In this document: positions 42 to 20,243 of the stretch, piece after piece
Numbering within the stretch: the stretch's first letter is position 1
How the letters are laid out: each line of letters begins with the position of its first letter
From: an uncultured Eubacteriales bacterium
GTDB lineage: Bacteria; Bacillota; Clostridia; TANB77; RGIG9151
NCBI GenBank assembly: GCA_964631135.1
Contig: CAZVVZ010000005.1
Location: 1-20,243, forward strand
Length of the DNA stretch: 20,243 nt
Reading direction: 5' to 3'
The notes under the pieces: generated by a model
Told to the model about the DNA's origin: nothing
The model's database searches: none
Seen by the model: only the letters and a program-made list of their open reading frames with translations
Made by a program: the position numbers and the translations under genes

Positions 42-66
42 CGTGTAAAAAGGAAATATTCGTTCC

Positions 67-241
67 TTTTATGTTACTAGTCAGATTACTACTCTACGAA
101 AATAGTATATATGTTTTAAAAGGAACGAATATTTGCAGAAAGACTTCCCGTATTTTTTAAAGTCTTTCGTCGCAAATCCTGAGTTCCGATAAAACATATA
201 TACTATTTTCGTAGAGTAGTATCCTAAACAGTAACATAAAA
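67..241 (+). repeat. Long imperfect palindrome, copy 1 of a dispersed hairpin element family
   Basis: Positions x and 308-x pair. Outer arms 67-105 / 203-241 pair at 34 of 39 positions by hand count. Segments 106-147 and 160-202 are identical to copy 2 (13791-13832 and 13848-13890). Variable apical loop around 148-159. Confidence 0.85.
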
Positions 242-279
242 TCAACAAAAAAACATATGATTCTTTGAGGTGAATTTAT

Positions 280-2522: not shown

Positions 2523-5500
2523 ATGAAAAATAATAATGATAAATCTCTTTGTGAGCTAAATAAAGATTTTGCGGCCATTTTTAATATATATAAGAAACTA
2601 AATGAAAATAAAACTTTAATGATACCTGCAAGCGAGTGGCTACTTGATAATTTCTATATTATCGAAGAGCATGCGAAGCAAATAAAAAGGGATTTTAATA
2701 AGAAAATATATAAAAATCTGCCTATGGTTGACTCCGGCTTTACTAGAGTTTTTACTATCGCACGTGAAATTGTTTCTCAAAATGACGGTAAAATAGACGA
2801 GAATATTATTGAAAAATTTATAAATAAATACGAGGAAGTAACTCCGTTATATATGCGGGAAATATGGAACTTGGGAGTATGTTTACGAATTGCACTTATT
2901 GAAAAAATTCGAGGAATAAGCGAAAAAATAATGGAAACATATCACAAATGGGAGCAAGCTGAAAAATGGATTATAGATTACCCTTTGGTGGCGGAGCTAA
3001 AGCTTCCGGATATAGCAAATAATTATTCTTTTTATGAGCATTTAGCATATAAATTGCGCAGAATGGGAAAAGATGGGATTATTACTATAAACCGTATCGA
3101 CAGTTACATAGAGCGATATGGTACGAGCATAGAAATCATTTCAAGAAAAGAACACAGCATTCAGGCAAGAATGAAGATTTCTATTGGTAATTCAATTCAA
3201 AGCTTAAAGTATATTTCCAATATAAATTGGAATGATGTTTTTAATGAAATAAGTGAGATTGAGCATATTTTTGAAAATGAAAAATCCGGGATATATAAGA
3301 AGATGGACTTAGAAAGTAAAAATGCTTATCGAAGTAGGGTAGAAAGCATAGCTAAGGATTTAAAAATTTCAGAACTTCATGTTGCAAAAAAGTGTGTTGC
3401 TTGTGCTGATGAAAATTATAATGATGAAAAATGGGGGCATGTTGGATGCTATTTATTCGGTGAAGGCGAAGATACGTTCCTAAGTAAGCTAAATGTAAAA
3501 TTACCGAGATGGTATAAATTAAAGCGGCATTATAAAAATAAACCTTTTTCAATTTATTTTTTAACTATGTTTCTGTTTGCATTGATATCTACCGCGCTTT
3601 TTGGAGTACTTTTATATTATAATAATTGGTTATCCGCAGTAGGCTGGATAGGGTTGATAATAGCATTTATTATTGCTTTTGACGGTGGAAATTGTTTTGC
3701 AAATTATATGTTTAGCAGAATTTTTAAACCTAGGATTATTCCAAGACTTGATTTTTCCGGCGGAGTCCCTGAAAGTTCAGCAACAATGATTATTGTACCA
3801 ACATTATTGTCTAACGAAAAACGTGTAAGAGAGATGCTTTCTAATCTAGAAAAGTATTATATCGCGATACAGGATAAAAATGTGCTTTTTACATTGCTTG
3901 GAGATATAAAAGAAAGTGAGACTGAGGAAACTGAAGAGGACGAAACTATTGGGGAAATAGGTGTTAATACAGTAAATGAATTAAATAAAAAATATGGAAG
4001 TAATAAGTTTTTCTTTGCATATAGGAGAAGATTTTTTAATGCTTCGGAAGATAAATGGCTCGGGTGGGAGCGAAAAAGAGGGGCAATATTAAAGTTTAAT
4101 GACTTCTTATTAACCGGAAAATCTGATGATTACAGAATAATTTCCGGAGGTTTTGATGAAATTCCCAAAATAAAATATGTTCTGACGGTTGATGCAGATA
4201 CTTTTATCCCTATAGGTGAAGCAAAAAAGCTTATTGGAGCAATTTCTCATCCGGTTAATATTCCTGTGTTAAATGAAGAGGAAACGGCAGTAATTTCAGG
4301 TCATGGACTTATTCAGCCACATATCGGAATAGATGTGGTTAGTGCGAATCGGAGCAAATTTTCACAAGTTTTTGCCGGTACGGGCGGAATAGATCCATAT
4401 GTTTGTGCATCATCAGATATATATCAAGATTTGTTTGGAGAGGCAATTTTTACAGGTAAAGGGATTTATAATTTAGAAGTTTTTCAAAAAGTGTTAAGTG
4501 AGACTATCCCTGACAATGCCATTTTAAGTCATGATTTATTAGAAGGGTCGTATTTACGGGCAGGCTTAGCTACGGATATTGAGCTGATTGATGGTTACCC
4601 ATCTCGCTATAATGCATATGCATTAAGATCACATAGATGGGTAAGAGGTGACTGGCAGATAATAAAGTGGCTTTTTAAGAATGTACGAAACAAGAGCAAC
4701 GAGAGAGTTAGAAATCCTATAAATAAAATTTCTAAATGGAAGATTTTTGACAACCTTAGGAGAAGTCTTACAGCTCCTTTTATGCTACTGCTTATTTTAC
4801 TTTCTTTTTCGATTTTACCCGGAAATCCAATATTTTGGACAGCATTTGCGGTTATTCTGGGGATAAGAGGGAGTAAGAGACAATTTTTATATCAATTCTT
4901 GTTTTTGCCTTTTCAGGCATGGCTTATGTTTTCGGCAATATGTGTAACTATTTATAGATTGTTTTTTGTTAAAAAGAATTTGCTTGAATGGGTTACTGCG
5001 GCAGACATGGAAGTAAAACTGAAGAACACTTTAGGCAGCTTTTATGTTCTGATGAAATCTAATGTTATTTTTGGTTTAATGGTTTTAGCTGCTTCTTATT
5101 TTATTAAAGGAGATATTTTTTCTATAGTGTTGGGTACTTTTTTATTTGTAGTTTGGACGGTTGCTCCTTTTATTGCATTTAGTATCAGTAAGCCTATAGA
5201 TAATAAAAAAGAGAAATTAAATGATGCGGAAATTAAGGAATTAAGAGAATTTGCAAGGAAAACATGGGCATATTTTGATACTTTAATGAATGAGGAGAAT
5301 AATTTTCTTCCTCCGGATAATTTTCAGGAAGATCCGCCGAATGGAGTTGCGAATAGGACTTCGCCGACTAATATAGGACTTGGAATGTTGGCACTTTTAT
5401 CTGCTTATGATTTAGGGTTTATTGAAATTAGTGAAGTTAAGGATAAGATGGCGAAACTGTTAAATACTGTTATGCAACTTGAAAAGTGGAATGGGCACAT

Positions 5501-7481
5501 ACTTAACTGGTATAATACAAAAACATTAAAGCCATTATTCCCACGTTATATTTCTACAGTGGATAACGGGAATTTTTTGGCATATTGTATTACTGCCAGA
5601 GAAGGTATAAATAAATTGCTTGAAGATTCGGAAGATAAAAGTGAAATAATTTTTAAATTGGATAAGTTAATTGATGAGATGGATTTTTCTCTTTTATATG
5701 ATAAGAAGAAAAATGTGTTTTCTATAGGCTACAACTTAGAAGAAGGCAGGCTTACCAATTCTTTTTATGATTTATTAGCTTCTGAGGCTAGGCAAACAAG
5801 CTTTTTAGCGGTTGCAAGACATGAAGCACCTGTTAAGCACTGGTTTTCTTTGGGACGCAGCTTAACACGATTAAATCGCGACAAGGGGCTTGTTTCATGG
5901 ACCGGGACAATGTTTGAATATTTGATGCCGCTTCTTGTTATGCGAAATTATCCTAAGACATTGCTTGATGAAACTTATGATTTCGTTATTAAGAGTCAGA
6001 TTATTTATGCTAAAAAGAAAAATGTTGTTTGGGGAATTTCCGAATCTGCATTTTATAATTTTGATATAAACTTAAATTATCAGTATAAGGCTTTAGGGGT
6101 GCCGTGGCTTGGACTAAAGAGGGGATTACTTGAAGATACTGTTATTTCACCATATTCTACTATGCTTGCTCTTATGGTTAAACCACATTCGGCTTATAAA
6201 AATTTAAAAGAGTTATTAAAATATGATATGTTAGGGCAGTATGGTTTTTATGAGTCGATTGATTTTACTCCCGGCAGGCTTAAACTGTTAAACGGTGAGA
6301 AAAATTTTGCACAAATTAAAAGTTACATGGCACATCATCAAGGAATGAGTCTGGTGGCTATAAATAATGTTATAAATGATTTTATTATGCAAGAAAGATT
6401 TCATAGCAATGTATATGTAAAATCAGCAGATTTTCTTCTTCAAGAGAAAGTGCCAGGGGATATTATTTATACTAAGGACAGCAAAGAGAAGGTCGTTCCG
6501 CCTAAAAAAGTTTATTTTGAGAGTGTTGATACGGATAGACTTATAGAGGTTATGCCTGAAACAATGCCAAGTTTTAATGTCCTTACTAATGGGAGTTATG
6601 CGATTAGAATAAATGATAGAGGGGTTAACTCTACTCGTTTTAGAAATATTTCTGTTTCAAGATATAGAAGTGATTATATAAAAGAGTTTTATGGCCAGAC
6701 TTTTTATATACGAAGATTAGATACGGGTGAAATTTGGAGCCCAGCATATAAACCTGATTTTAAAGTACCGGATAAATATTTTGTGTCATTTTCAGGAGAT
6801 AAAGCAAAGTTTGTAAGACGTGACAAGGATATTGAAACGAATTATGAAGTTGTTGTGGCTACCGAAGATAATGCGGATATAAAACGTATTTCAATTATCA
6901 ATCATGCGAATATACCGGTCGATTTTGAAATTACCGGTTTTACTGAGATCGTTATTGGAGATCAAAATGCAGACATTTCGCATAGGGCTTTTTACGGGTT
7001 ATTTGTTAATACTTCGGAAGAAGATGAAATTTTATTTGCCAAAAGAAAGCCTAGAAATAAAAATGAAGAGGGACTGTTTGCATTTCAGACTTCTTTTGTT
7101 TTAGGTGAGGGATTTGGAGATTTTCAGTTTGAGACGGACAGAGCTAAGTTCATAGGAAGGGGCAGAAACGTTTTGAATCCTATTTCAATTACTGAAGGGA
7201 AGCCACTTTTCGGGACCACAGGTTCTGTTTTGGATCCTGCTTTTGTGCAGAGAAGAAATTTAAGGATCAATCCGGGAGAAACCGGTATGATATGCTTTGT
7301 TACAGGTATAGAAACTAGCATAGATAGGGCTAAGACTGTTGCTAAGAAGTACAGAAATGAGGACATGGTATCTGCTGTGTTCAGACTGGCTTATGCCAGA
7401 AATCAAGTTGAGCTTTCATATCTAAATGTAACTTCGGAGGAAGTTAAATTTTTTGACGAATTGATAAAATATTTAGTTTAA
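2523..7481 (+). CDS. Cyclic beta-1,2-glucan synthase-like protein, N-terminal part: membrane GT84 glycosyltransferase, glucoamylase-like region and first GH94 N-terminal domain
   Basis: 1652-aa ORF with several hydrophobic segments (e.g. FSIYFLTMFLFALISTALFGVLLYY). DxD motif VDADT near 4188-4202, plus HRWVRGDWQ. The C-terminal third resembles GH94 N-terminal sandwich domains. The architecture matches Cgs/NdvB/ChvB-type proteins by recognition only. Confidence 0.8.
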   Translation: MKNNNDKSLCELNKDFAAIFNIYKKLNENKTLMIPASEWLLDNFYIIEEHAKQIKRDFNKKIYKNLPMVDSGFTRVFTIAREIVSQNDGKIDENIIEKFINKYEEVTPLYMREIWNLGVCLRIALIEKIRGISEKIMETYHKWEQAEKWIIDYPLVAELKLPDIANNYSFYEHLAYKLRRMGKDGIITINRIDSYIERYGTSIEIISRKEHSIQARMKISIGNSIQSLKYISNINWNDVFNEISEIEHIFENEKSGIYKKMDLESKNAYRSRVESIAKDLKISELHVAKKCVACADENYNDEKWGHVGCYLFGEGEDTFLSKLNVKLPRWYKLKRHYKNKPFSIYFLTMFLFALISTALFGVLLYYNNWLSAVGWIGLIIAFIIAFDGGNCFANYMFSRIFKPRIIPRLDFSGGVPESSATMIIVPTLLSNEKRVREMLSNLEKYYIAIQDKNVLFTLLGDIKESETEETEEDETIGEIGVNTVNELNKKYGSNKFFFAYRRRFFNASEDKWLGWERKRGAILKFNDFLLTGKSDDYRIISGGFDEIPKIKYVLTVDADTFIPIGEAKKLIGAISHPVNIPVLNEEETAVISGHGLIQPHIGIDVVSANRSKFSQVFAGTGGIDPYVCASSDIYQDLFGEAIFTGKGIYNLEVFQKVLSETIPDNAILSHDLLEGSYLRAGLATDIELIDGYPSRYNAYALRSHRWVRGDWQIIKWLFKNVRNKSNERVRNPINKISKWKIFDNLRRSLTAPFMLLLILLSFSILPGNPIFWTAFAVILGIRGSKRQFLYQFLFLPFQAWLMFSAICVTIYRLFFVKKNLLEWVTAADMEVKLKNTLGSFYVLMKSNVIFGLMVLAASYFIKGDIFSIVLGTFLFVVWTVAPFIAFSISKPIDNKKEKLNDAEIKELREFARKTWAYFDTLMNEENNFLPPDNFQEDPPNGVANRTSPTNIGLGMLALLSAYDLGFIEISEVKDKMAKLLNTVMQLEKWNGHILNWYNTKTLKPLFPRYISTVDNGNFLAYCITAREGINKLLEDSEDKSEIIFKLDKLIDEMDFSLLYDKKKNVFSIGYNLEEGRLTNSFYDLLASEARQTSFLAVARHEAPVKHWFSLGRSLTRLNRDKGLVSWTGTMFEYLMPLLVMRNYPKTLLDETYDFVIKSQIIYAKKKNVVWGISESAFYNFDINLNYQYKALGVPWLGLKRGLLEDTVISPYSTMLALMVKPHSAYKNLKELLKYDMLGQYGFYESIDFTPGRLKLLNGEKNFAQIKSYMAHHQGMSLVAINNVINDFIMQERFHSNVYVKSADFLLQEKVPGDIIYTKDSKEKVVPPKKVYFESVDTDRLIEVMPETMPSFNVLTNGSYAIRINDRGVNSTRFRNISVSRYRSDYIKEFYGQTFYIRRLDTGEIWSPAYKPDFKVPDKYFVSFSGDKAKFVRRDKDIETNYEVVVATEDNADIKRISIINHANIPVDFEITGFTEIVIGDQNADISHRAFYGLFVNTSEEDEILFAKRKPRNKNEEGLFAFQTSFVLGEGFGDFQFETDRAKFIGRGRNVLNPISITEGKPLFGTTGSVLDPAFVQRRNLRINPGETGMICFVTGIETSIDRAKTVAKKYRNEDMVSAVFRLAYARNQVELSYLNVTSEEVKFFDELIKYLV

Positions 7482-7495
7482 GGCGGTGAAATATT

Positions 7496-10201
7496 TTGGA
7501 CAGTACCAAAAGTATTATTTGGAGTCGTGGAATTTCCGGTGATCTACCTATTGTCCTTATTGTAATATCTAAGTATGAAGATTTAGATATTATATATGAA
7601 GTGATAAAAGCACATGAATATTGGCGAGCTAAAGGTATTTTTGTGGATTTGGTTGTTGTAAGTCAGGAGGAAATCAGTTATAACCATCCTTTATGGAATA
7701 GCATTTGTGATGTTGTTTGTTCAAGTCATTTAGGAGTTTTACAGAATGTTTCAGGAGGTGCTTTCTTATTAAGGGGAGATATTTTAACGAAGGATGAATT
7801 AACTGAGCTTATAAATCTTTCAAGTATTGTTTCTAAAGACGGAGTTTTTTTGTTATCTGAAAATCTTAAGACTGAGAATATTTTTAACAGTGTAAAATCA
7901 AATAGCAGAGAAAAGATTAGTCATAGGGAATTGGAGTTTTTTAACGGTATCGGCGGGTTTGATGGGGAAAACGGTGAGTATGTTATTTATCCGTCGAAAG
8001 ATAATTATACTCCTCTTCCTTGGAGTAATGTTTTAGCTAATGAAAACTTCGGTTGTATTACTACCGAGGCAGGTGGAGGGTATACATGGGCTTTTAACAG
8101 TCATGAATATAGATTAACTCCTTGGAGTAATGACATGGTTAGTGATACTTCAGGAGAGTATTTATATATAAAAGATTTAGATAATAGTGAAATTTTTTCT
8201 CCTCATTTACTTCCGTTTAATTCTGAAGGCGATTACGAAGTTGTGTATGGTTTGGGATACACAAAATATTCTGCTATAGTGGCTGATTTTAAGGTCGATA
8301 CAACTGTGTTTGTTCCACGAAATGATTTGATGAAAGTGATTGAGATTAAAATTAAAAATTTAAGAGAGAGCAGAAGAAATATAGAAGTTGGATATTACGT
8401 GGAACCTGTTTTGGGATTTAGCAGAAATTTTAAGGAGAAAACGATAGAGTATGCTTTTGATAACAATATGCTTATTTTTAGCAATAAGTATGAAAAAGAA
8501 TTTTCAGGCAATAAGATTTTTTTAAAATTGCTTGGAGAAAATAGTTTTGAGGAAAAGAACACCGGATTTAGTGTTTTTAAGAATATAACGGTGGAAAGTA
8601 TGGGTGAGGTTTACGATGCGGTATTGTTCGGAGTTTATGAAAATTTGGATATAATAAGCAGATATTCTGATAAAAATTATAGAGAGAATGAATTGGAATC
8701 TGTAAAGAATTTTTTTACTAAAGATGTTAATAAAATTAAGATAAATACTCCGGATAAGGCAACTAATTTGCTATTAAATTCATTTTTGCTTTATCAGACA
8801 TTGGTATGCAGAATTTGGGCAAAAAGTTCTTTTTACCAGTCTGGAGGAGCTACCGGATTTAGGGATCAGCTGCAAGATAGTATGCCGTTTGCATATATTA
8901 TGCCGGAAATAACAAAAAAAGAGATTTTATATCATGCCAGACATCAATTTAACGAGGGAGATGTTTTGCACTGGTGGCACAAAGAGGCAAGAAAAGGTAC
9001 ACGAACACATTTTTCAGATGATCTATTATGGCTTGTCTTTGTGACGAATTATTATATAAAAGTTACGGGTGATTATGATATATTAAAAGAACAGGTTGAA
9101 TTCGTTGAAGGAGTAGGATTAGGAGAATACGAAGATGAAAAGTATATAGAGTTTGAGTATTGCAAAAACAGTGCTTCATTATTTGCACATTGCATTTTTG
9201 CCATAGAGCATGCAATTAAATTGGGGGAACATGGATTAGTTTTAATGGGCTCAGGTGATTGGAATGACGGAATGAATGAAGTCGGGAATAAAGGCAGCGG
9301 AGAAAGTGTATGGCTTTCGTGGTTTGTATATAAAATACTAACAGATTTTTCACCTATTTGTAAGAAGCAAGGGAGGGACGATTTGGCAGATAAATATTCC
9401 GAATTTTCAGCAAAGTTAAAGGAAAGTATAAATGCTAATGCTTGGGACGGAGAATGGTATAAGAGAGCTTTCTTTGATGATGGGACACCACTTGGCTCTG
9501 TAGATAATGAGGAATGTAAAATTGATTCTATTTCGCAGTCATGGAGTATTATATCCGGGGCAGGGGAGGAAGATAGATGCAAAAAAGCGATGACTTCATT
9601 TTTTAATTATTTAGTGGATAGGGAAAATGGAATTATAAAATTATTGACACCACCATTTAATAAAAGTAATTTACAACCCGGATATATAAAGAGCTATCCT
9701 GAGGGCGTAAGGGAAAACGGAGGGCAGTATACTCATGCGGCTGTTTGGGCCGGAATTGCATATTCTTTATTAAATGATAAAGATAAGACTTTTGAAATTT
9801 TTGAAATATTAAATCCTATAAATCATAGCAGGACAGATAGCGAGATGAAAAAATATAAGCTGGAGCCTTATGTTGTAGCCGCCGATATTTATTCTAATCC
9901 GTTACATGTTGGACGTGGTGGCTGGAGTTGGTATACGGGAGCAGCAGCTTGGCTGTATAGGTTTGGAGTTGAATTTTTGCTAGGACTAAAGTTTAAGGGG
10001 GATATGCTATTTATAAAGCCTTGTGTCCCGATCGATTGGAAGGAATTTGAGGTAGATTATAAGTATTTTAATACAATATATAAAATTAAAGTTGTATTAA
10101 ATGCTGAAAATAAAGTTATATTTGATAATCTACCCAGCAAAGGCAATAGTTTTAAATTGGTGAACGATAACGGGATACATTTTGTAGAGGTTAGGTGTTA
10201 A
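7496..10201 (+). CDS. GH94 glycoside phosphorylase-like protein (C-terminal half of a Cgs/NdvB-type synthase), encoded as a separate ORF
   Basis: 901-aa ORF in a different frame from 2523-7481. TTG start preceded by AGGCGGTG (7481-7488) at about 7-nt spacing. Contains GISGDLPIV, PWSN repeats, and the GH94 catalytic-type motif GFRDQLQD (about 8855-8878). Confidence 0.75.
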   Translation: MDSTKSIIWSRGISGDLPIVLIVISKYEDLDIIYEVIKAHEYWRAKGIFVDLVVVSQEEISYNHPLWNSICDVVCSSHLGVLQNVSGGAFLLRGDILTKDELTELINLSSIVSKDGVFLLSENLKTENIFNSVKSNSREKISHRELEFFNGIGGFDGENGEYVIYPSKDNYTPLPWSNVLANENFGCITTEAGGGYTWAFNSHEYRLTPWSNDMVSDTSGEYLYIKDLDNSEIFSPHLLPFNSEGDYEVVYGLGYTKYSAIVADFKVDTTVFVPRNDLMKVIEIKIKNLRESRRNIEVGYYVEPVLGFSRNFKEKTIEYAFDNNMLIFSNKYEKEFSGNKIFLKLLGENSFEEKNTGFSVFKNITVESMGEVYDAVLFGVYENLDIISRYSDKNYRENELESVKNFFTKDVNKIKINTPDKATNLLLNSFLLYQTLVCRIWAKSSFYQSGGATGFRDQLQDSMPFAYIMPEITKKEILYHARHQFNEGDVLHWWHKEARKGTRTHFSDDLLWLVFVTNYYIKVTGDYDILKEQVEFVEGVGLGEYEDEKYIEFEYCKNSASLFAHCIFAIEHAIKLGEHGLVLMGSGDWNDGMNEVGNKGSGESVWLSWFVYKILTDFSPICKKQGRDDLADKYSEFSAKLKESINANAWDGEWYKRAFFDDGTPLGSVDNEECKIDSISQSWSIISGAGEEDRCKKAMTSFFNYLVDRENGIIKLLTPPFNKSNLQPGYIKSYPEGVRENGGQYTHAAVWAGIAYSLLNDKDKTFEIFEILNPINHSRTDSEMKKYKLEPYVVAADIYSNPLHVGRGGWSWYTGAAAWLYRFGVEFLLGLKFKGDMLFIKPCVPIDWKEFEVDYKYFNTIYKIKVVLNAENKVIFDNLPSKGNSFKLVNDNGIHFVEVRC

Positions 10202-10874: not shown

Positions 10875-12983
10875 CTAATCTAATAAAATTATTAAAGCAG
10901 TTTCCTCATCGTCACAGAGTATAACCATTACTCTATCGCCTTCATCAATGTCACCCTCATCATATGCATCTACATAATCGGTTAAATTTTTACCCGGCTT
11001 TGTAGAATCATAGTTTACAAAAACTGCATTTGATAGAACATCTATAGTATACTCCTCACCATCATCGGCTTCAATTACAATTTCATCATCATCAATATCT
11101 GTGATTTCACCTACTAAGTAATTATCGTCTAACATGTCTTCTGAAGACAAGTAGTCACTGCTGCTAGAACTGCTTACCAATTTAGATTTTTTAGAAGCAA
11201 CTTCCAATTCTTCAATATAATCATTTTTCCCTAAAACAATTTTTACAAACTTCCCTTCGCTGTACAGATAACTTGATGTCGCAATTTTACTATATGTTTT
11301 ATCGGTGCCGTCATAAGAAAAGTCAGTATCGTCATCGAAATAGTAATCTTCTTCTTCATCATCGTAATCTCCATCGTACTCGTTAATATAGTCATCCATT
11401 AAAATATATTCTTTTCCGCTGTCTACATCTTCGATAACTATATATCCCTTTTTAGTACTTGCTTCTGTTATTTCACCGATTATATCATCATCTTCATCAT
11501 CGGAATCGTCATCATCTGTTAAAGTAGCTTCTTTAGTTGCAACTTCTAGCAAATCTATATAGTCATTTTTACCTAATGTAATAGCTACATAGTTGCCCTT
11601 TTTATACAAATAGCTTGATGTTGCGATATTTTTATAGGATTTTGAAGAACCGTTATATTCATATTCGGTATCATCATCAAAGTAATAATCTTCTTCTTCA
11701 TCATCATAATCCTCATCATATTCATCAATATAGTCATCCATTAAGATATATTCATCGCCATCATCATCTTCGATTACTACATAGCCATACTTCGTACTGC
11801 AATCAATTATTTTTCCGATAATTCTTTCTTCAGGCGAAACAACCGCAGCTTTTACTATATAGTTTGTAGAATCTACTGTTAGAGTTACCTCGTAATCTTT
11901 CTTTATAGCAGATGTCAATGTAGAAGATTTTCCATCTAAAGTATAAGTAGTAGAAGAATCATATGTGTATGCTATTCTTGAACCGTTTGAAGTTACTGTT
12001 ATAGTTTTAGAGGTTGAGCTTGCAGCATAAATGGTGCCTTTTACTGTTTTTGTAGTTATTTTTGCACCTTCGGATATATTCATTGAAGTAATATATAAAT
12101 CGTTTGTAATAGTAGCTGTAACAGTAGCATTTGCTTTCATAGAAGAAGAAGTAACTTCTTTAGAATTTACATAGAATTTTGTATTGCTGTCATATTCATA
12201 CTCTTCTGTAGTTCCATTTACTTTAATCCATACACTGCTTGCACTGGTATCTATTTTAGTTATAGTTCCGGTTACAAACGATGTTGCGGAAGCAGTATTA
12301 GAATTTGTATTTGTATTAGAACTTTCATCAGAAACAGATGGTTTTATATCTATTTTTTTATATATTCTTTGCAAAATAGATGCAGCTTGAGCACGTGTTA
12401 GAGAGGTCTTAGGTGAGAATGTTTCACTATCCATACCTGCCATAATTTTTTGAGAATACACATAATAAACATAAGGTTTTGCACTGGCTGATATAGAAGC
12501 AGTATCAGAAAAAGGTAATACGACTATTGAATTTTTGGTAGCTTCACTCTCTTTTCCCAAAACTTTAGTTACTAAAACTGCCATTTCTTCTCGAGTCAGC
12601 GGAGAATTTATTTTATCAGAAGCTAATAAATTATCCAGATCACTTTCTTTTAATACATTTACACCCATTAAATATGCAACATCTTTTTTATATTGAGTTG
12701 TATATTTAGACAATGCAGAAGTATATTTTTCTAAAAATTTATTTGCTTCAGTAGGGTAATTATTCAAACCCGCAACTCTTGAAAGCAAGATTAAACTTTC
12801 AATTTTCGAAATCTCTTTTGACGGTCTAAAAGTTCCGTCAGTATAACCGGAAATAATTCCGGCTTTTACCATTTCTTCAACTACACCTTTTGCCCAATGT
12901 CCTTCCGGCAAATCGCTGAATGCTGCAAAAGATGTTGTGGTTAACATCACAGTAACCATAAGAATTAAAAAAAACTTTTTCAT
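10875..12983 (-). CDS. Secreted S-layer-homology (SLH) domain surface protein with Ser/Thr-rich beta region and hyper-acidic C-terminal repeats
   Basis: 702-aa ORF with SD gaggagga. Signal peptide MKKFFLILMVTVMLTTTSFAAF. SLH motifs FSDLPEGHWAKGVVEEM...GYTDGTFRP and FSPKTSLTRAQAASIL. A T/S-rich segment is followed by D/E/Y-rich repeats. Confidence 0.85.
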   Translation of the reverse strand: MKKFFLILMVTVMLTTTSFAAFSDLPEGHWAKGVVEEMVKAGIISGYTDGTFRPSKEISKIESLILLSRVAGLNNYPTEANKFLEKYTSALSKYTTQYKKDVAYLMGVNVLKESDLDNLLASDKINSPLTREEMAVLVTKVLGKESEATKNSIVVLPFSDTASISASAKPYVYYVYSQKIMAGMDSETFSPKTSLTRAQAASILQRIYKKIDIKPSVSDESSNTNTNSNTASATSFVTGTITKIDTSASSVWIKVNGTTEEYEYDSNTKFYVNSKEVTSSSMKANATVTATITNDLYITSMNISEGAKITTKTVKGTIYAASSTSKTITVTSNGSRIAYTYDSSTTYTLDGKSSTLTSAIKKDYEVTLTVDSTNYIVKAAVVSPEERIIGKIIDCSTKYGYVVIEDDDGDEYILMDDYIDEYDEDYDDEEEDYYFDDDTEYEYNGSSKSYKNIATSSYLYKKGNYVAITLGKNDYIDLLEVATKEATLTDDDDSDDEDDDIIGEITEASTKKGYIVIEDVDSGKEYILMDDYINEYDGDYDDEEEDYYFDDDTDFSYDGTDKTYSKIATSSYLYSEGKFVKIVLGKNDYIEELEVASKKSKLVSSSSSSDYLSSEDMLDDNYLVGEITDIDDDEIVIEADDGEEYTIDVLSNAVFVNYDSTKPGKNLTDYVDAYDEGDIDEGDRVMVILCDDEETALIILLD
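11120..11822 (-). repeat. Intragenic tandem repeat: two units of about 113 aa (about 339 nt) plus a partial third
   Basis: Unit 1 (aa 388-500, nt 11484-11822) starts IIGKIIDCSTKYGYVVIEDDDGDEYILMDDYIDEYDEDYDDEEEDYYFDDD. Unit 2 (from aa 501, nt 11483 downward) starts IIGEITEASTKKGYIVIEDVDSGKEYILMDDYINEYDGDYDDEEEDYYFDDD. The third partial unit reads LVGEITDIDDDEIVIEADDGEEY. Confidence 0.8.
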
Positions 12984-13740: not shown

Positions 13741-13940
13741 GGGCATAAAAGACTTCTTTAAATAGGTTGCTGCTCAGACTAAAAAAATACTATATATGTT
13801 TTAAAAGGAACGAATATTTGCAGAAAGACTTCTTCTACTATTTTTAGAAGTCTTTCGTCGCAAATCCTGAGTTCCGATAAAACATATATAGTATTTTTTT
13901 AGTCTGAACAGTAACCTATTTAAATGAGTCTTTTATGGCC
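13741..13940 (+). repeat. Long imperfect palindrome, copy 2 (longest, 200 nt) of the hairpin element family
   Basis: Positions x and 27681-x pair. Outer 50 nt of each arm (13741-13790 / 13891-13940) pair at 45 of 50 positions by hand count. The core is identical to copy 1. It fills 200 nt of the 235-nt gap between convergent genes. Confidence 0.9.
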
Positions 13941-17685: not shown

Positions 17686-17800
17686 TTTACTTTTTGAATG
17701 CATAGAGTTATTTTCCAAGTGTAACTGATGATTAAGGCTACTCATATTTTCCGCTCGTTTCGCGACAAAATATTAAGGCATCTTTTGCATTCTGTGAAAG

Positions 17801-17920
17801 TAAAAAATACAGTATATGTTTTATCGGAACTCAGGATTTGCGACGAAAGACTTTTAAAAACATCAGAAGAAGTCTATCGGCAAATATTCGTCCCTTTTAA
17901 AACATATACTGTATTTTTTA
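17801..17920 (-). repeat. Imperfect palindrome, copy 3 (120 nt, opposite orientation) of the hairpin element family
   Basis: Positions x and 35721-x pair, with perfect 23-bp outer stem 17801-17823 / 17898-17920. 17814-17853 is the exact reverse complement of the 40-nt right arm of copies 1 and 2. The other arm (17870-17909) differs at 3 positions. Confidence 0.85.
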
Positions 17921-17993
17921 TTTAAATTTAAAAAAGTTTTTGCAATCATTTTTCTAGTGTCTCAAGTAGTATTTGCTTTCCCACACATTTATA

Positions 17994-18902: not shown

Positions 18903-20243
18903 TTAGTTATTTTCTTCGTATAAAGCTTTAGCATTACCCGGTAAAGAACGAATATGACGTAAAAATGCATATACATTCTTATCATCGTCGGAGTTATAGA
19001 CAAACCCAAGCTTTTCAGCAACAAAAGTTGCATTTTTTCTAAACAGTTCAATCATGATAAACAACGAATCCCAGCATCGCTCATAATCTGACATATTGTA
19101 GCTCCTCATAAGACGTTCAAACATATCTTTTGGAAGATAATTTTCCATATATTTATCTTCGTTGCCGGTAGAAACTTCAAAGTTATTTTCAATTCCTATA
19201 CGAAATCTTATCATTTTTAATAATTCTTTTCTGACACAACTTTCTATATGCGAAGTTGCATATAAAAACTCTTTTCGCCATAATCCCTTAGCAACATATA
19301 CAGAAACCCACCAAAACTCGTTACAGCAATCATGGAATTCTTTTTGAGTAGGCTGCTTTATCCAATGAGATTGGTCAGATGGGGAGGCAAGAGTAGGTAA
19401 TACTTTGTCTTTATCAAGTAAAACTTTCGTAAGTGAATCTTCTTTTATATAATTTCCACGTTCTTCATAAGGAATAATAGTTAAATCAATTCTGTTTCCA
19501 TCAATAAATTGCATTAAATAAGAAAAACGTTTATCATCTTTTTTTGCACCTGTCATCAATGACGGAGTCTGCATTATAAGCCTTCTGCCGAAAATATTTA
19601 TCCAGTTGGGGTCTTTAGTAAATGATTCATAGTTATTTACTATAAAAGCTATATCATAATCTTGAAAAAAATCTTTTGGGGCTTTAGGATTGATTCTTGA
19701 TCCATTCATGGCAACAATTCTAATCCTATCATCTTTTTTCGCGGTATCTATAATGAGTGAAAGAATAGATTCCTCAGAACGAGTAATAGCCTTTGTTTTA
19801 GTATGCAAATCTTTTTTTAAATAAACTAAATCGGAGCATTCTTTACCGTTAACCATTATTGGATCGCTATAATTTTTAGTGAAAAAATTGTCTACGGTAT
19901 GAGAATACTGAAAACCAAATTTTTCATAAAACGGCGGATATGATGTGCCGGCAAGCATTGTGGAAAATTGGTTTTTATAAATCTGAAAGATATGCTGTAA
20001 AAGTTGTTTTGCAAAGCCGTGTCCCTGATATTCGACAGAAGTTGCAAGATTTTTTATTTCACAAGTTGTTTCATCTGCTTTTGAAATAACAACTTCAGAA
20101 ACAGCAACACCGTTTACACTAAGCACAAACATCTCACTTTTATCTAAGTATTTATCTATCATTTTTTCAGAAGGATCTGCAAGTAAAAGCAGATCTAGGT
20201 AATCTTTTTTATTTGAAGTAACTTTTTTTATATTTATTAACAT
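18903..20243 (-). CDS. aadK: Fusion protein: N-terminal GNAT acetyltransferase (YvbK-like) + C-terminal aminoglycoside 6-nucleotidyltransferase ANT(6)/AadK-like
   Basis: 446-aa continuous ORF with ATG at the last 3 nt of the window. aa 1-145 carry YLDLLLLADPSE...EIKNLATSVEYQGHGFAKQLL...FYEKFGFQ (GNAT). aa ~155-446 are collinear by eye with B. subtilis AadK (RIRIVAMNGSR, FQDYDIAF, CCNEFWWVSVYVAKGLWR). Confidence 0.8.
   Translation of the reverse strand: MLINIKKVTSNKKDYLDLLLLADPSEKMIDKYLDKSEMFVLSVNGVAVSEVVISKADETTCEIKNLATSVEYQGHGFAKQLLQHIFQIYKNQFSTMLAGTSYPPFYEKFGFQYSHTVDNFFTKNYSDPIMVNGKECSDLVYLKKDLHTKTKAITRSEESILSLIIDTAKKDDRIRIVAMNGSRINPKAPKDFFQDYDIAFIVNNYESFTKDPNWINIFGRRLIMQTPSLMTGAKKDDKRFSYLMQFIDGNRIDLTIIPYEERGNYIKEDSLTKVLLDKDKVLPTLASPSDQSHWIKQPTQKEFHDCCNEFWWVSVYVAKGLWRKEFLYATSHIESCVRKELLKMIRFRIGIENNFEVSTGNEDKYMENYLPKDMFERLMRSYNMSDYERCWDSLFIMIELFRKNATFVAEKLGFVYNSDDDKNVYAFLRHIRSLPGNAKALYEENN

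Follow-up and report, generated by a model that had tools for sequence, protein, structure and literature searches.

We identified a non-coding, multi-copy palindromic DNA element whose conserved core of about 100 nt forms a hairpin of four helices separated by fixed, asymmetric loops. The element constitutes a previously undescribed family that is confined to a narrow clade of uncultured Clostridia. Its helices covary between species, its main internal loop keeps the same unpaired bases, and the outer arms bear the marks of having been copied onto each other. We tentatively interpret the element as a selfish DNA hairpin that is read by a putative structure-specific enzyme and that doubles as a transcription terminator, a reading to which we assign a probability of about 0.42.

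The window, i.e. the whole stretch of 20,243 nt analysed here, contains three copies of the element that are mutually 88–93% identical (Table 1). The host is a Clostridia-like spore former with genes for SpoIIID, BofA, CotF, DpaA and an SLH protein. Its DNA contains ~32% G+C, it is represented by metagenomes only, and its nearest named relative is ‘Clostridia bacterium’. Contigs that were fetched through close HisRS homologues carry L-labels throughout. Every copy of the element is intergenic: copy 1 is flanked by a canonical terminator (7–41), which comes first, and by dpaA, which comes after; copy 2 occupies the gap between the convergent genes of a CBM protein (stop 13719) and hisS (stop 13955); and copy 3 has a cotF-like and a metallophosphatase gene, again convergent, as its neighbours. 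No tRNA and no Rfam family was found in the window.

Table 1 Features of the palindromic element in the window
Feature	Position	Strand	Remarks
Copy 1, whole palindrome (core 106–202)	59–249	+	
Solo inverted left-arm fragment AAAAGGAACGAATATTTCC	52–70	−	Outer edge of copy 1; 1 mismatch, 0.04 expected by chance
Copy 2, whole palindrome	13741–13940	+	63-nt arms, 92% complementary
A7 tract left of the stem	13781–13787	+	Mirror T7 at 13894–13900
Copy 2 core, helices H1, H3, H2 and H4 with fixed loops	13791–13890	+	RNAfold
H1	13791–13803/13878–13890	+	RNAfold
Bulge AAA	13804–13806	+	Opposite GA (13876–13877)
H3, left strand GGAAC	13807–13811	+	Pairs with GTTCC 13871–13875
Unpaired GAAT, left side of main internal loop	13812–13815	+	Invariant in 13/13 copies
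H2, left strand ATTTGC	13816–13821	+	Pairs with GCAAAT 13860–13865
Single-base bulge A	13822	+	Opposite GTC; A in 8/10 aligned copies
H4 and variable apical loop	13823–13856	+	13823–13833 with 13846–13856; loop 13834–13845
Bulge GTC	13857–13859	+	GTT in both L041 copies, lost in L007_a, GTG(A) in L040_a
Unpaired CCTGA, right side of main internal loop	13866–13870	+	Invariant except for an extra C in both L007 copies
Copy 3, palindrome (core 17811–17910)	17798–17923	−	

Between copies 1 and 2, two large GH94 genes stand side by side (2523–10201, + strand; 1652 and 901 aa), with supersandwich, glucoamylase-like and GH94 catalytic domains and with their synteny kept in all relatives. The SLH-domain gene (10875–12983, − strand) contains a 229-nt internal duplication (11183–11411 and 11525–11753, 73% identical) together with many short GAT/GAA-type codon repeats on the coding (minus) strand, which suggest acidic repeats. 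Just past the window end at 20243, L002 carries a class A RNase P RNA (257–667, 252 bits) with a tRNA directly after it, then a terminator and finally a left arm of the element that stands alone and has decayed.

The initial annotation had quoted two arm strings from copy 2 and described four helices interrupted by identical asymmetric loops in every copy. The strings are present at 13791–13890 and the arrangement recurs in 3/3 window copies. Folding of both strands by RNAfold, as had been proposed, yields exactly four helices for this segment at −37.6 kcal/mol (z = −9 compared with shuffled sequences); the opposite strand folds nearly equally, at −36.6 kcal/mol. Expected numbers of chance matches to the left and right arms amount to 0.04 and 0.00, so that the arm matches lie far above chance. 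The hairpin is not limited to the core but forms the centre of the 200-nt palindrome 13741–13940, for which a DNA fold of −67.4 kcal/mol (z = −18.3) was obtained. Past the first 9 bp of H4, the apical segment comprises 13–48 nt in other copies. The right arm is, as first reported, identical among the window copies (here 41 nt, AAGTC...CATATA, in 3/3), and the left arm of copy 3 carries three substitutions. That one arm is invariant was nevertheless a sampling effect of three copies (3/34 versus 0/36 substitutions, Fisher p = 0.11): the copies L013_a and L041_C from relatives show an uncompensated right-arm change, GTGCC.

We searched for further copies by an nhmmer profile, by a covariance model and by inspection of orthologous gaps in ~290 kb of loci, ~270 kb of which are syntenic, come from the window species and from about eight relatives, and overlap in part. 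Thirteen distinct copies with a single architecture were recovered from about eight related uncultured Clostridia. The window species holds a fourth full copy, L020_a, in addition to the three in the window; L007 and L041 carry two copies each, and L009, L013, L011, L016 and L040 one each. The element occurs in species whose HisRS is 86% or more identical to that of the window; among the fetched loci, no copy was found in L039 or in L017 and L018, which represent a species with a HisRS of only 79% identity. Decayed relics lie at L020 7748–7829, at L002 753–786 and at 52–70 of the window. The order of parts is H1, AAA, H3, GAATA, H2, A, H4, apical loop, H4′, GTC, H2′, TCC(C)TGA, H3′, G-N and H1′; it was parsed on the first nine copies, and L020_a, L040_a and the two L041 copies, which were read by eye, fit. 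Short-read contigs often terminate within the element (L003, L005, L042). An assembly artefact was considered and ruled out, as the palindromes lie within contigs, have different genes to their left and right, and are found again in assemblies of different samples (MEGAHIT, JGI and SPAdes).

Searches of larger collections returned no further members. An exact 20-mer of the right arm gave a single chance match among genome contigs, in Paenibacillus and without a hairpin. Two exact patterns gave no match among metagenome contigs, a collection that does not include these samples, since the JGI contig from which L007 derives would otherwise have been picked up by the second pattern. Three exact-pattern scans of viral contigs gave chance matches only, BLAST against plasmids and phages gave no match, and six-frame peptides of the element, which would reveal spurious ORFs over other copies, matched none of 5.8 billion proteins. 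With Rfam 15 there were 0 matches at the gathering threshold; with an E-value threshold only generic microRNA and long-hairpin models appeared, at 39 bits compared with a gathering score of 211. In the literature on Clostridial MITEs or REPINs we found nothing relevant.

To describe the covariation, we made an alignment of 10 distinct copies from several species, with a GAAA placeholder standing in for the apical loops. In this alignment 90.9% of the cells are paired, compared with 34–45% in a control with slid partners. Two-sided changes occur in 17/33 base pairs and 54 cells are compensatory, a level that was reached by 0/500 shuffles. H3 is found as GGAAC/GTTCC, GGGAC/GTCCC, GGTGC/GCACC, GATGC/GCAAC and GGTGT/GCACC, H2 as TTTGC/GCAAA, TTCAC/GTGAA, TTTTC/GAAAA and TTCGT/ACGAA, and the sequence of H4 differs in nearly every species. 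The conserved imperfections that had been pointed out in the initial annotation are borne out by this comparison: GAAT and CCTGA vary in 0/9 columns compared with 26/36 helix columns in H2–H4 (p = 1e-4), an invariance that is inflated to the extent that copies were found partly via conserved stretches, L040_a having been recognised by eye in part via its loops. Since several copies share descent, the copy counts are not independent. Because the unpaired columns never vary while the helices covary, we conclude from these alignments that the imperfections are under selection.

Some loop variants are specific to a genome. TCCCTGA is present in both L007 copies and GTT in both L041 copies, and the helices differ within each pair. 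With 8 same-genome pairs among 78 pairs, the probability of each loop coincidence is roughly 0.1. These two cases suggest that the loops co-evolve with a genome-specific factor.

A functional RNA would account just as well for covariation and loop conservation, and a structured RNA module is the strongest competitor of the selfish DNA hairpin, one that we consider possible though on balance doubtful. The element would then be transcribed by read-through from flanking genes, its internal loop would bind an RNA-binding protein or form a tertiary motif, its long stem and U-tract would terminate or stabilise transcripts in both directions, and the dynamics of the DNA palindrome would be a side effect. 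Such an RNA is classically recognised by covarying helices combined with unpaired bases that do not vary, and copies at orthologous sites persist across species. Tandem G-A/A-G pairs beside H3 are possible on the canonical strand only. The initial annotation had rightly placed them next to GGAAC/GUUCC and had rightly refrained from calling the loop a canonical k-turn, given two additional bases on the non-bulged strand; this departure counts against the RNA module, as does the lack of an Rfam family, with generic long-hairpin matches far under threshold. The change from GGAAC to GGGAC, which pairs as G-U on the canonical strand, had been taken as a weak hint that this strand acts as RNA. This hint dissolves in the larger alignment, where 6 G-U cells face 5 A-C cells, mostly in badly registered rows. 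The comparison gives no strand signal, and wobble intermediates are very few (6 cells versus 54 full compensations). The orientation of the core with respect to the flanking genes differs among species at 3/3 shared sites, and at L020_a the core is antisense to both neighbours. Finally, mirrored indels and an inverted duplication of coding sequence, described below, are events at the DNA level.

Termination is common to the RNA module and to the selfish DNA hairpin. In most copies the stem is bordered on its outside by an A-tract and a T-tract, and in 9/13 copies it is succeeded by a run of at least five T, compared with a background of 0.19. With the A7 tract of copy 2 and its mirrored T7, the hairpin would be trailed by a U-tract in either direction of transcription. 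The two convergent gaps of the window contain no other terminator-like site, and empty orthologous gaps carry canonical bidirectional terminators. A consensus terminator scan does not call the element, because its stem is long and rich in A+T. Given the A/T tracts flanking the stem and the convergent gaps devoid of any other terminator, the element probably also serves its host as a bidirectional terminator.

The palindromes of copies 1, 2 and 3 have arms of 60, 63 and 26 nt. Among copies of the window species the outer arms are partly homologous with a locus-specific distal part; in other species they are largely locus-specific. Outer-arm complementarity attains 59/59, 110/111 and 86/88. Two copies with 100% identical cores have outer arms that differ by mirrored substitutions and by a mirrored 6-nt indel, and the orthologous copies of L009 and L013 differ by GTC/GAC versus TGC/GCA. 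The palindrome of L007_a (919–1044 and 1061–1187) includes the final 34 nt of the metallophosphatase coding sequence. As homologues of this protein end alike, the 34-nt coding end is ancestral, and the right arm of L007_a is therefore an inverted duplicate of the neighbouring host gene. From this duplicate it follows that arms are copied onto each other; to judge from the mirrored changes, one arm is copied onto the other at the DNA level, presumably through template switching or through synthesis primed by the hairpin. In copy 2, the distal outer arm (13748–13765, AAAGACTTCTTTAAATAG) moreover resembles the reverse complement of the H4/apical region (13838–13855, AAAGACTTCTAAAAATAG) at 16/18 positions, a likeness that hints at nesting or internal templating.

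Arm-to-arm copying clearly operates, and it is one argument for regarding the element as a decaying MITE or palindromic repeat devoid of its own function, in which the loops would be inherited end differences of an ancestral element and complementarity would be upheld solely by template-switch correction. Decayed relics do exist, in L020, in L002 and at the edge of copy 1, and with window copies as similar as 88–93%, the bulges they share prove nothing. We nonetheless regard this explanation as distinctly unlikely. Helices were turned over between species at the 26 columns counted above, with nine loop columns unchanged. Template-switch correction should erase bulges, which was seen once, for A/GTC in L007_a; the survival of the core bulges despite arm copying thus strengthens the case for selection. 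The layout of a conserved centre between locus-specific termini is also the reverse of that of a MITE.

We examined the distribution of copies for signs of spread and turnover. The window species contains four near-identical full copies together with relics in about 31 kb, and divergence is much greater in the copies that other species carry at the same site than among the window-species copies themselves. The element has thus either spread recently or been homogenised within the genome. Orthologous sites are occupied in a patchy, partly phylogenetic manner: the window, L007 and L041 share a copy of the same orientation at site A, and L009, L013 and L040 have one at site B. The flanks of the element are TATATA-like and thereby their own reverse complement, and the loci contain no empty/filled pair within one species that would define the ends or a target duplication, so that the element is putatively mobile. 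A strain variant of copy 1 (L022:203–300 versus window 47–205) lacks 69 nt between AAAAGGAA direct repeats, a deletion that comprises the left outer arm and H1; the left strand of its H4 is diverged. Insertion of the element into the loop of an existing terminator, attractive for L007_b and L011_a, was considered and rejected: at the hisS site the L041 element lies beside the intact ancestral terminator, and an A-rich flank that has turned palindromic would also mimic nested terminators.

The same gaps hold other sequences in relatives. In the 92% species (L007; also L006 and L008), the gap between hisS and the CBM gene, where the window has copy 2, is occupied by a gene of the Rpn family of recombination-promoting nucleases/putative transposases (L007:5099–6205, 368 aa; TIGR01784, 53.8 bits), and in L039 other small genes are inserted at the same two gaps. 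A second family of long palindromes, rich in G+C, is found at the hisS/CBM site (L009:11318–11377, L040:2821–2881 and L016:11326–11399), with GACCAAGARGGACGG...CCGTCCYTCTTGGTC in L009 and L040 and TGCAAATAGGGACGCCC... in L016. Their arms show compensating differences between species, and the ancestral terminator comes after each. In two relatives, genes of ~430 aa with no Pfam or NCBIfam match (L006:1237–2538, − strand; L013:2083–3375, + strand), alongside small ORFs of no assigned family, sit in a variable region near a bactofilin gene.

Very improbable is a site read as double-stranded DNA, either as an invertible segment between inverted repeats or as half-sites of a duplex-reading protein: long near-perfect inverted repeats do flank the core and both orientations occur at the same site in different species, but the three to four samples of the window species showed no orientation polymorphism, half-sites would be expected to stay conserved instead of covarying, GAAT and CCTGA are not complementary and hence cannot both be read by one duplex-binding domain, and no recombinase gene lies nearby.

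If the selfish DNA hairpin is the correct reading, the palindromic element would be spread and kept uniform within the genomes of one narrow spore-forming clade by two processes. In the first, the ~100-nt core would fold as a single strand into its four helices, any change of the paired sequence being tolerated if pairing is preserved, and the fixed set of unpaired bases (AAA/G, GAAT/CCTGA and A/GTY) would offer contacts to a putative trans-acting, structure-specific protein on the folded DNA strand. Enzymes of this kind are RAYT, which reads REP/REPIN hairpins, the TnpA of IS200/IS605, which reads its end hairpins, and IntI, which reads attC. The interaction between protein and hairpin would account for propagation of the element. 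In the second process, likewise at the DNA level, intrastrand template switching or hairpin-primed synthesis would copy arm onto arm, keep the arms complementary and extend the palindrome into flanking host DNA. Both processes might be united if the core were a site of recognition and of priming, at which the enzyme nicks or binds the hairpin and rolling-hairpin-like synthesis copies flank onto flank; we consider this extension unlikely. Were it true, the element would represent a new kind of selfish element whose palindromes are grown from host DNA, including gene ends, and which, to judge from the genome-specific loop variants, evolves in concert with its enzyme.

The initial annotation had likened the conserved imperfections to recognition sites of HUH transposases. 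A candidate enzyme was sought among the called genes of the ~270 kb of syntenic loci, which contain no Y1 HUH gene (IS200/IS605, RAYT), no integrase and no parent IS with these arms. The only HUH gene that we came across belongs to an IS91-family insertion of ~1.46 kb (Zn_Tnp_IS91 and Y2_Tnp domains; L004:3127–4586) in a sister strain (sample ERZ27279226). It is situated exactly at the outer edge of the copy 3 arm (window ~17923) and is absent from the window and from L002. Its ORF is split into 124, 211 and 43 aa, and the 12-nt sequence TTAAATAAAAAA is found at both junctions. The ends of this insertion bear no likeness to the arms of the element.

Should the preferred reading hold, recognition of a fold rather than of a sequence, as in REPINs and attC, would operate in Clostridia, outside Proteobacteria, and the principal prize would be the protein that reads GAAT/CCTGA. 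The geometry of a conserved centre with host-derived palindromic flanks is unusual, and the element offers clean material on how palindromes in bacterial chromosomes grow and homogenise. It appears to replace normal terminators between convergent genes, hisS among them, and it breaks short-read assemblies of these rumen or gut MAGs.

Comparison with RNA motifs yields partial likenesses. Like a kink-turn, the element presents 5′-GA-3′ on both strands beside a Watson–Crick helix, GGAAC/GUUCC; its loop, however, is 4 × 5 nt (GAAU/CCUGA, or CCCUGA in L007), where a k-turn has a 3-nt bulge opposite nothing. Loop A of the hairpin ribozyme (AGAA/N*GUC) was ruled out, as the corresponding left-arm bases lie in a covarying helix, and the element does not follow the sequence rules of the 11-nt tetraloop receptor or of loop E.

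Among DNA elements, small bacterial repeats such as Correia, RUP, ERIC and BOX are non-coding, intergenic, hairpin-forming and multi-copy, and some act as terminators. The element shares the first set of properties with these MITEs and palindromic repeats but differs from them in that it has no conserved terminal inverted repeats and no parent IS in the loci, and in that its termini are locus-specific and partly derived from host flanks; no target duplication is recognisable at its self-complementary TATATA-like flanks. IS200/IS605 and IS91 elements resemble it insofar as imperfect hairpins are read on single-stranded DNA; the end hairpins of HUH elements, in contrast, are short, with a separate one at either end and both pointing the same way. 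The hairpin telomere of parvoviruses contains an asymmetric GA/GAA bubble, and hairpin-primed synthesis generates inverted duplications there. That both are DNA hairpins with a conserved, asymmetric bubble of mismatches is an analogy only, since a eukaryotic virus genome end is compared with a dispersed chromosomal repeat.

The two closest systems are attC sites and REPINs. In attC sites it is the fold that is conserved and not the sequence, and recognition relies on a few invariant bases, unpaired or extrahelical, of the folded single strand. The element shares this logic of fold over sequence with invariant unpaired bases, but its basal polarity is reversed (GTTTTA...TAAAAC versus RYYYAAC...GTTRRRY in attC), its copies are dispersed instead of forming cassette arrays, and no locus contains intI. 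REPINs are described mainly from Proteobacteria, whereas the host of the element is a Clostridia clade. A REPIN consists of two inverted REPs, which are short imperfect palindromes, at the ends of a hairpin with a variable, hairpin-forming spacer between them; this part varies in sequence yet is always self-complementary (PMC3337134). Both REPINs and the element are extragenic multi-copy hairpins of ~100 nt with two inverted arms and conserved imperfections, both persist vertically in a lineage, and both are presumably recognised in the form of a folded single strand. They differ in that the conserved REPs are basal and the variable pairing is apical, whereas the element has a conserved centre and variable pairing outside; in addition, its arms are not short palindromes of the REP type, and no RAYT was seen in the syntenic loci. 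The element thus departs from the defining features of MITEs, of k-turns and of every Rfam family; in its workings it comes closest to REPINs and attC sites, yet it departs from the defining features of these two as well.
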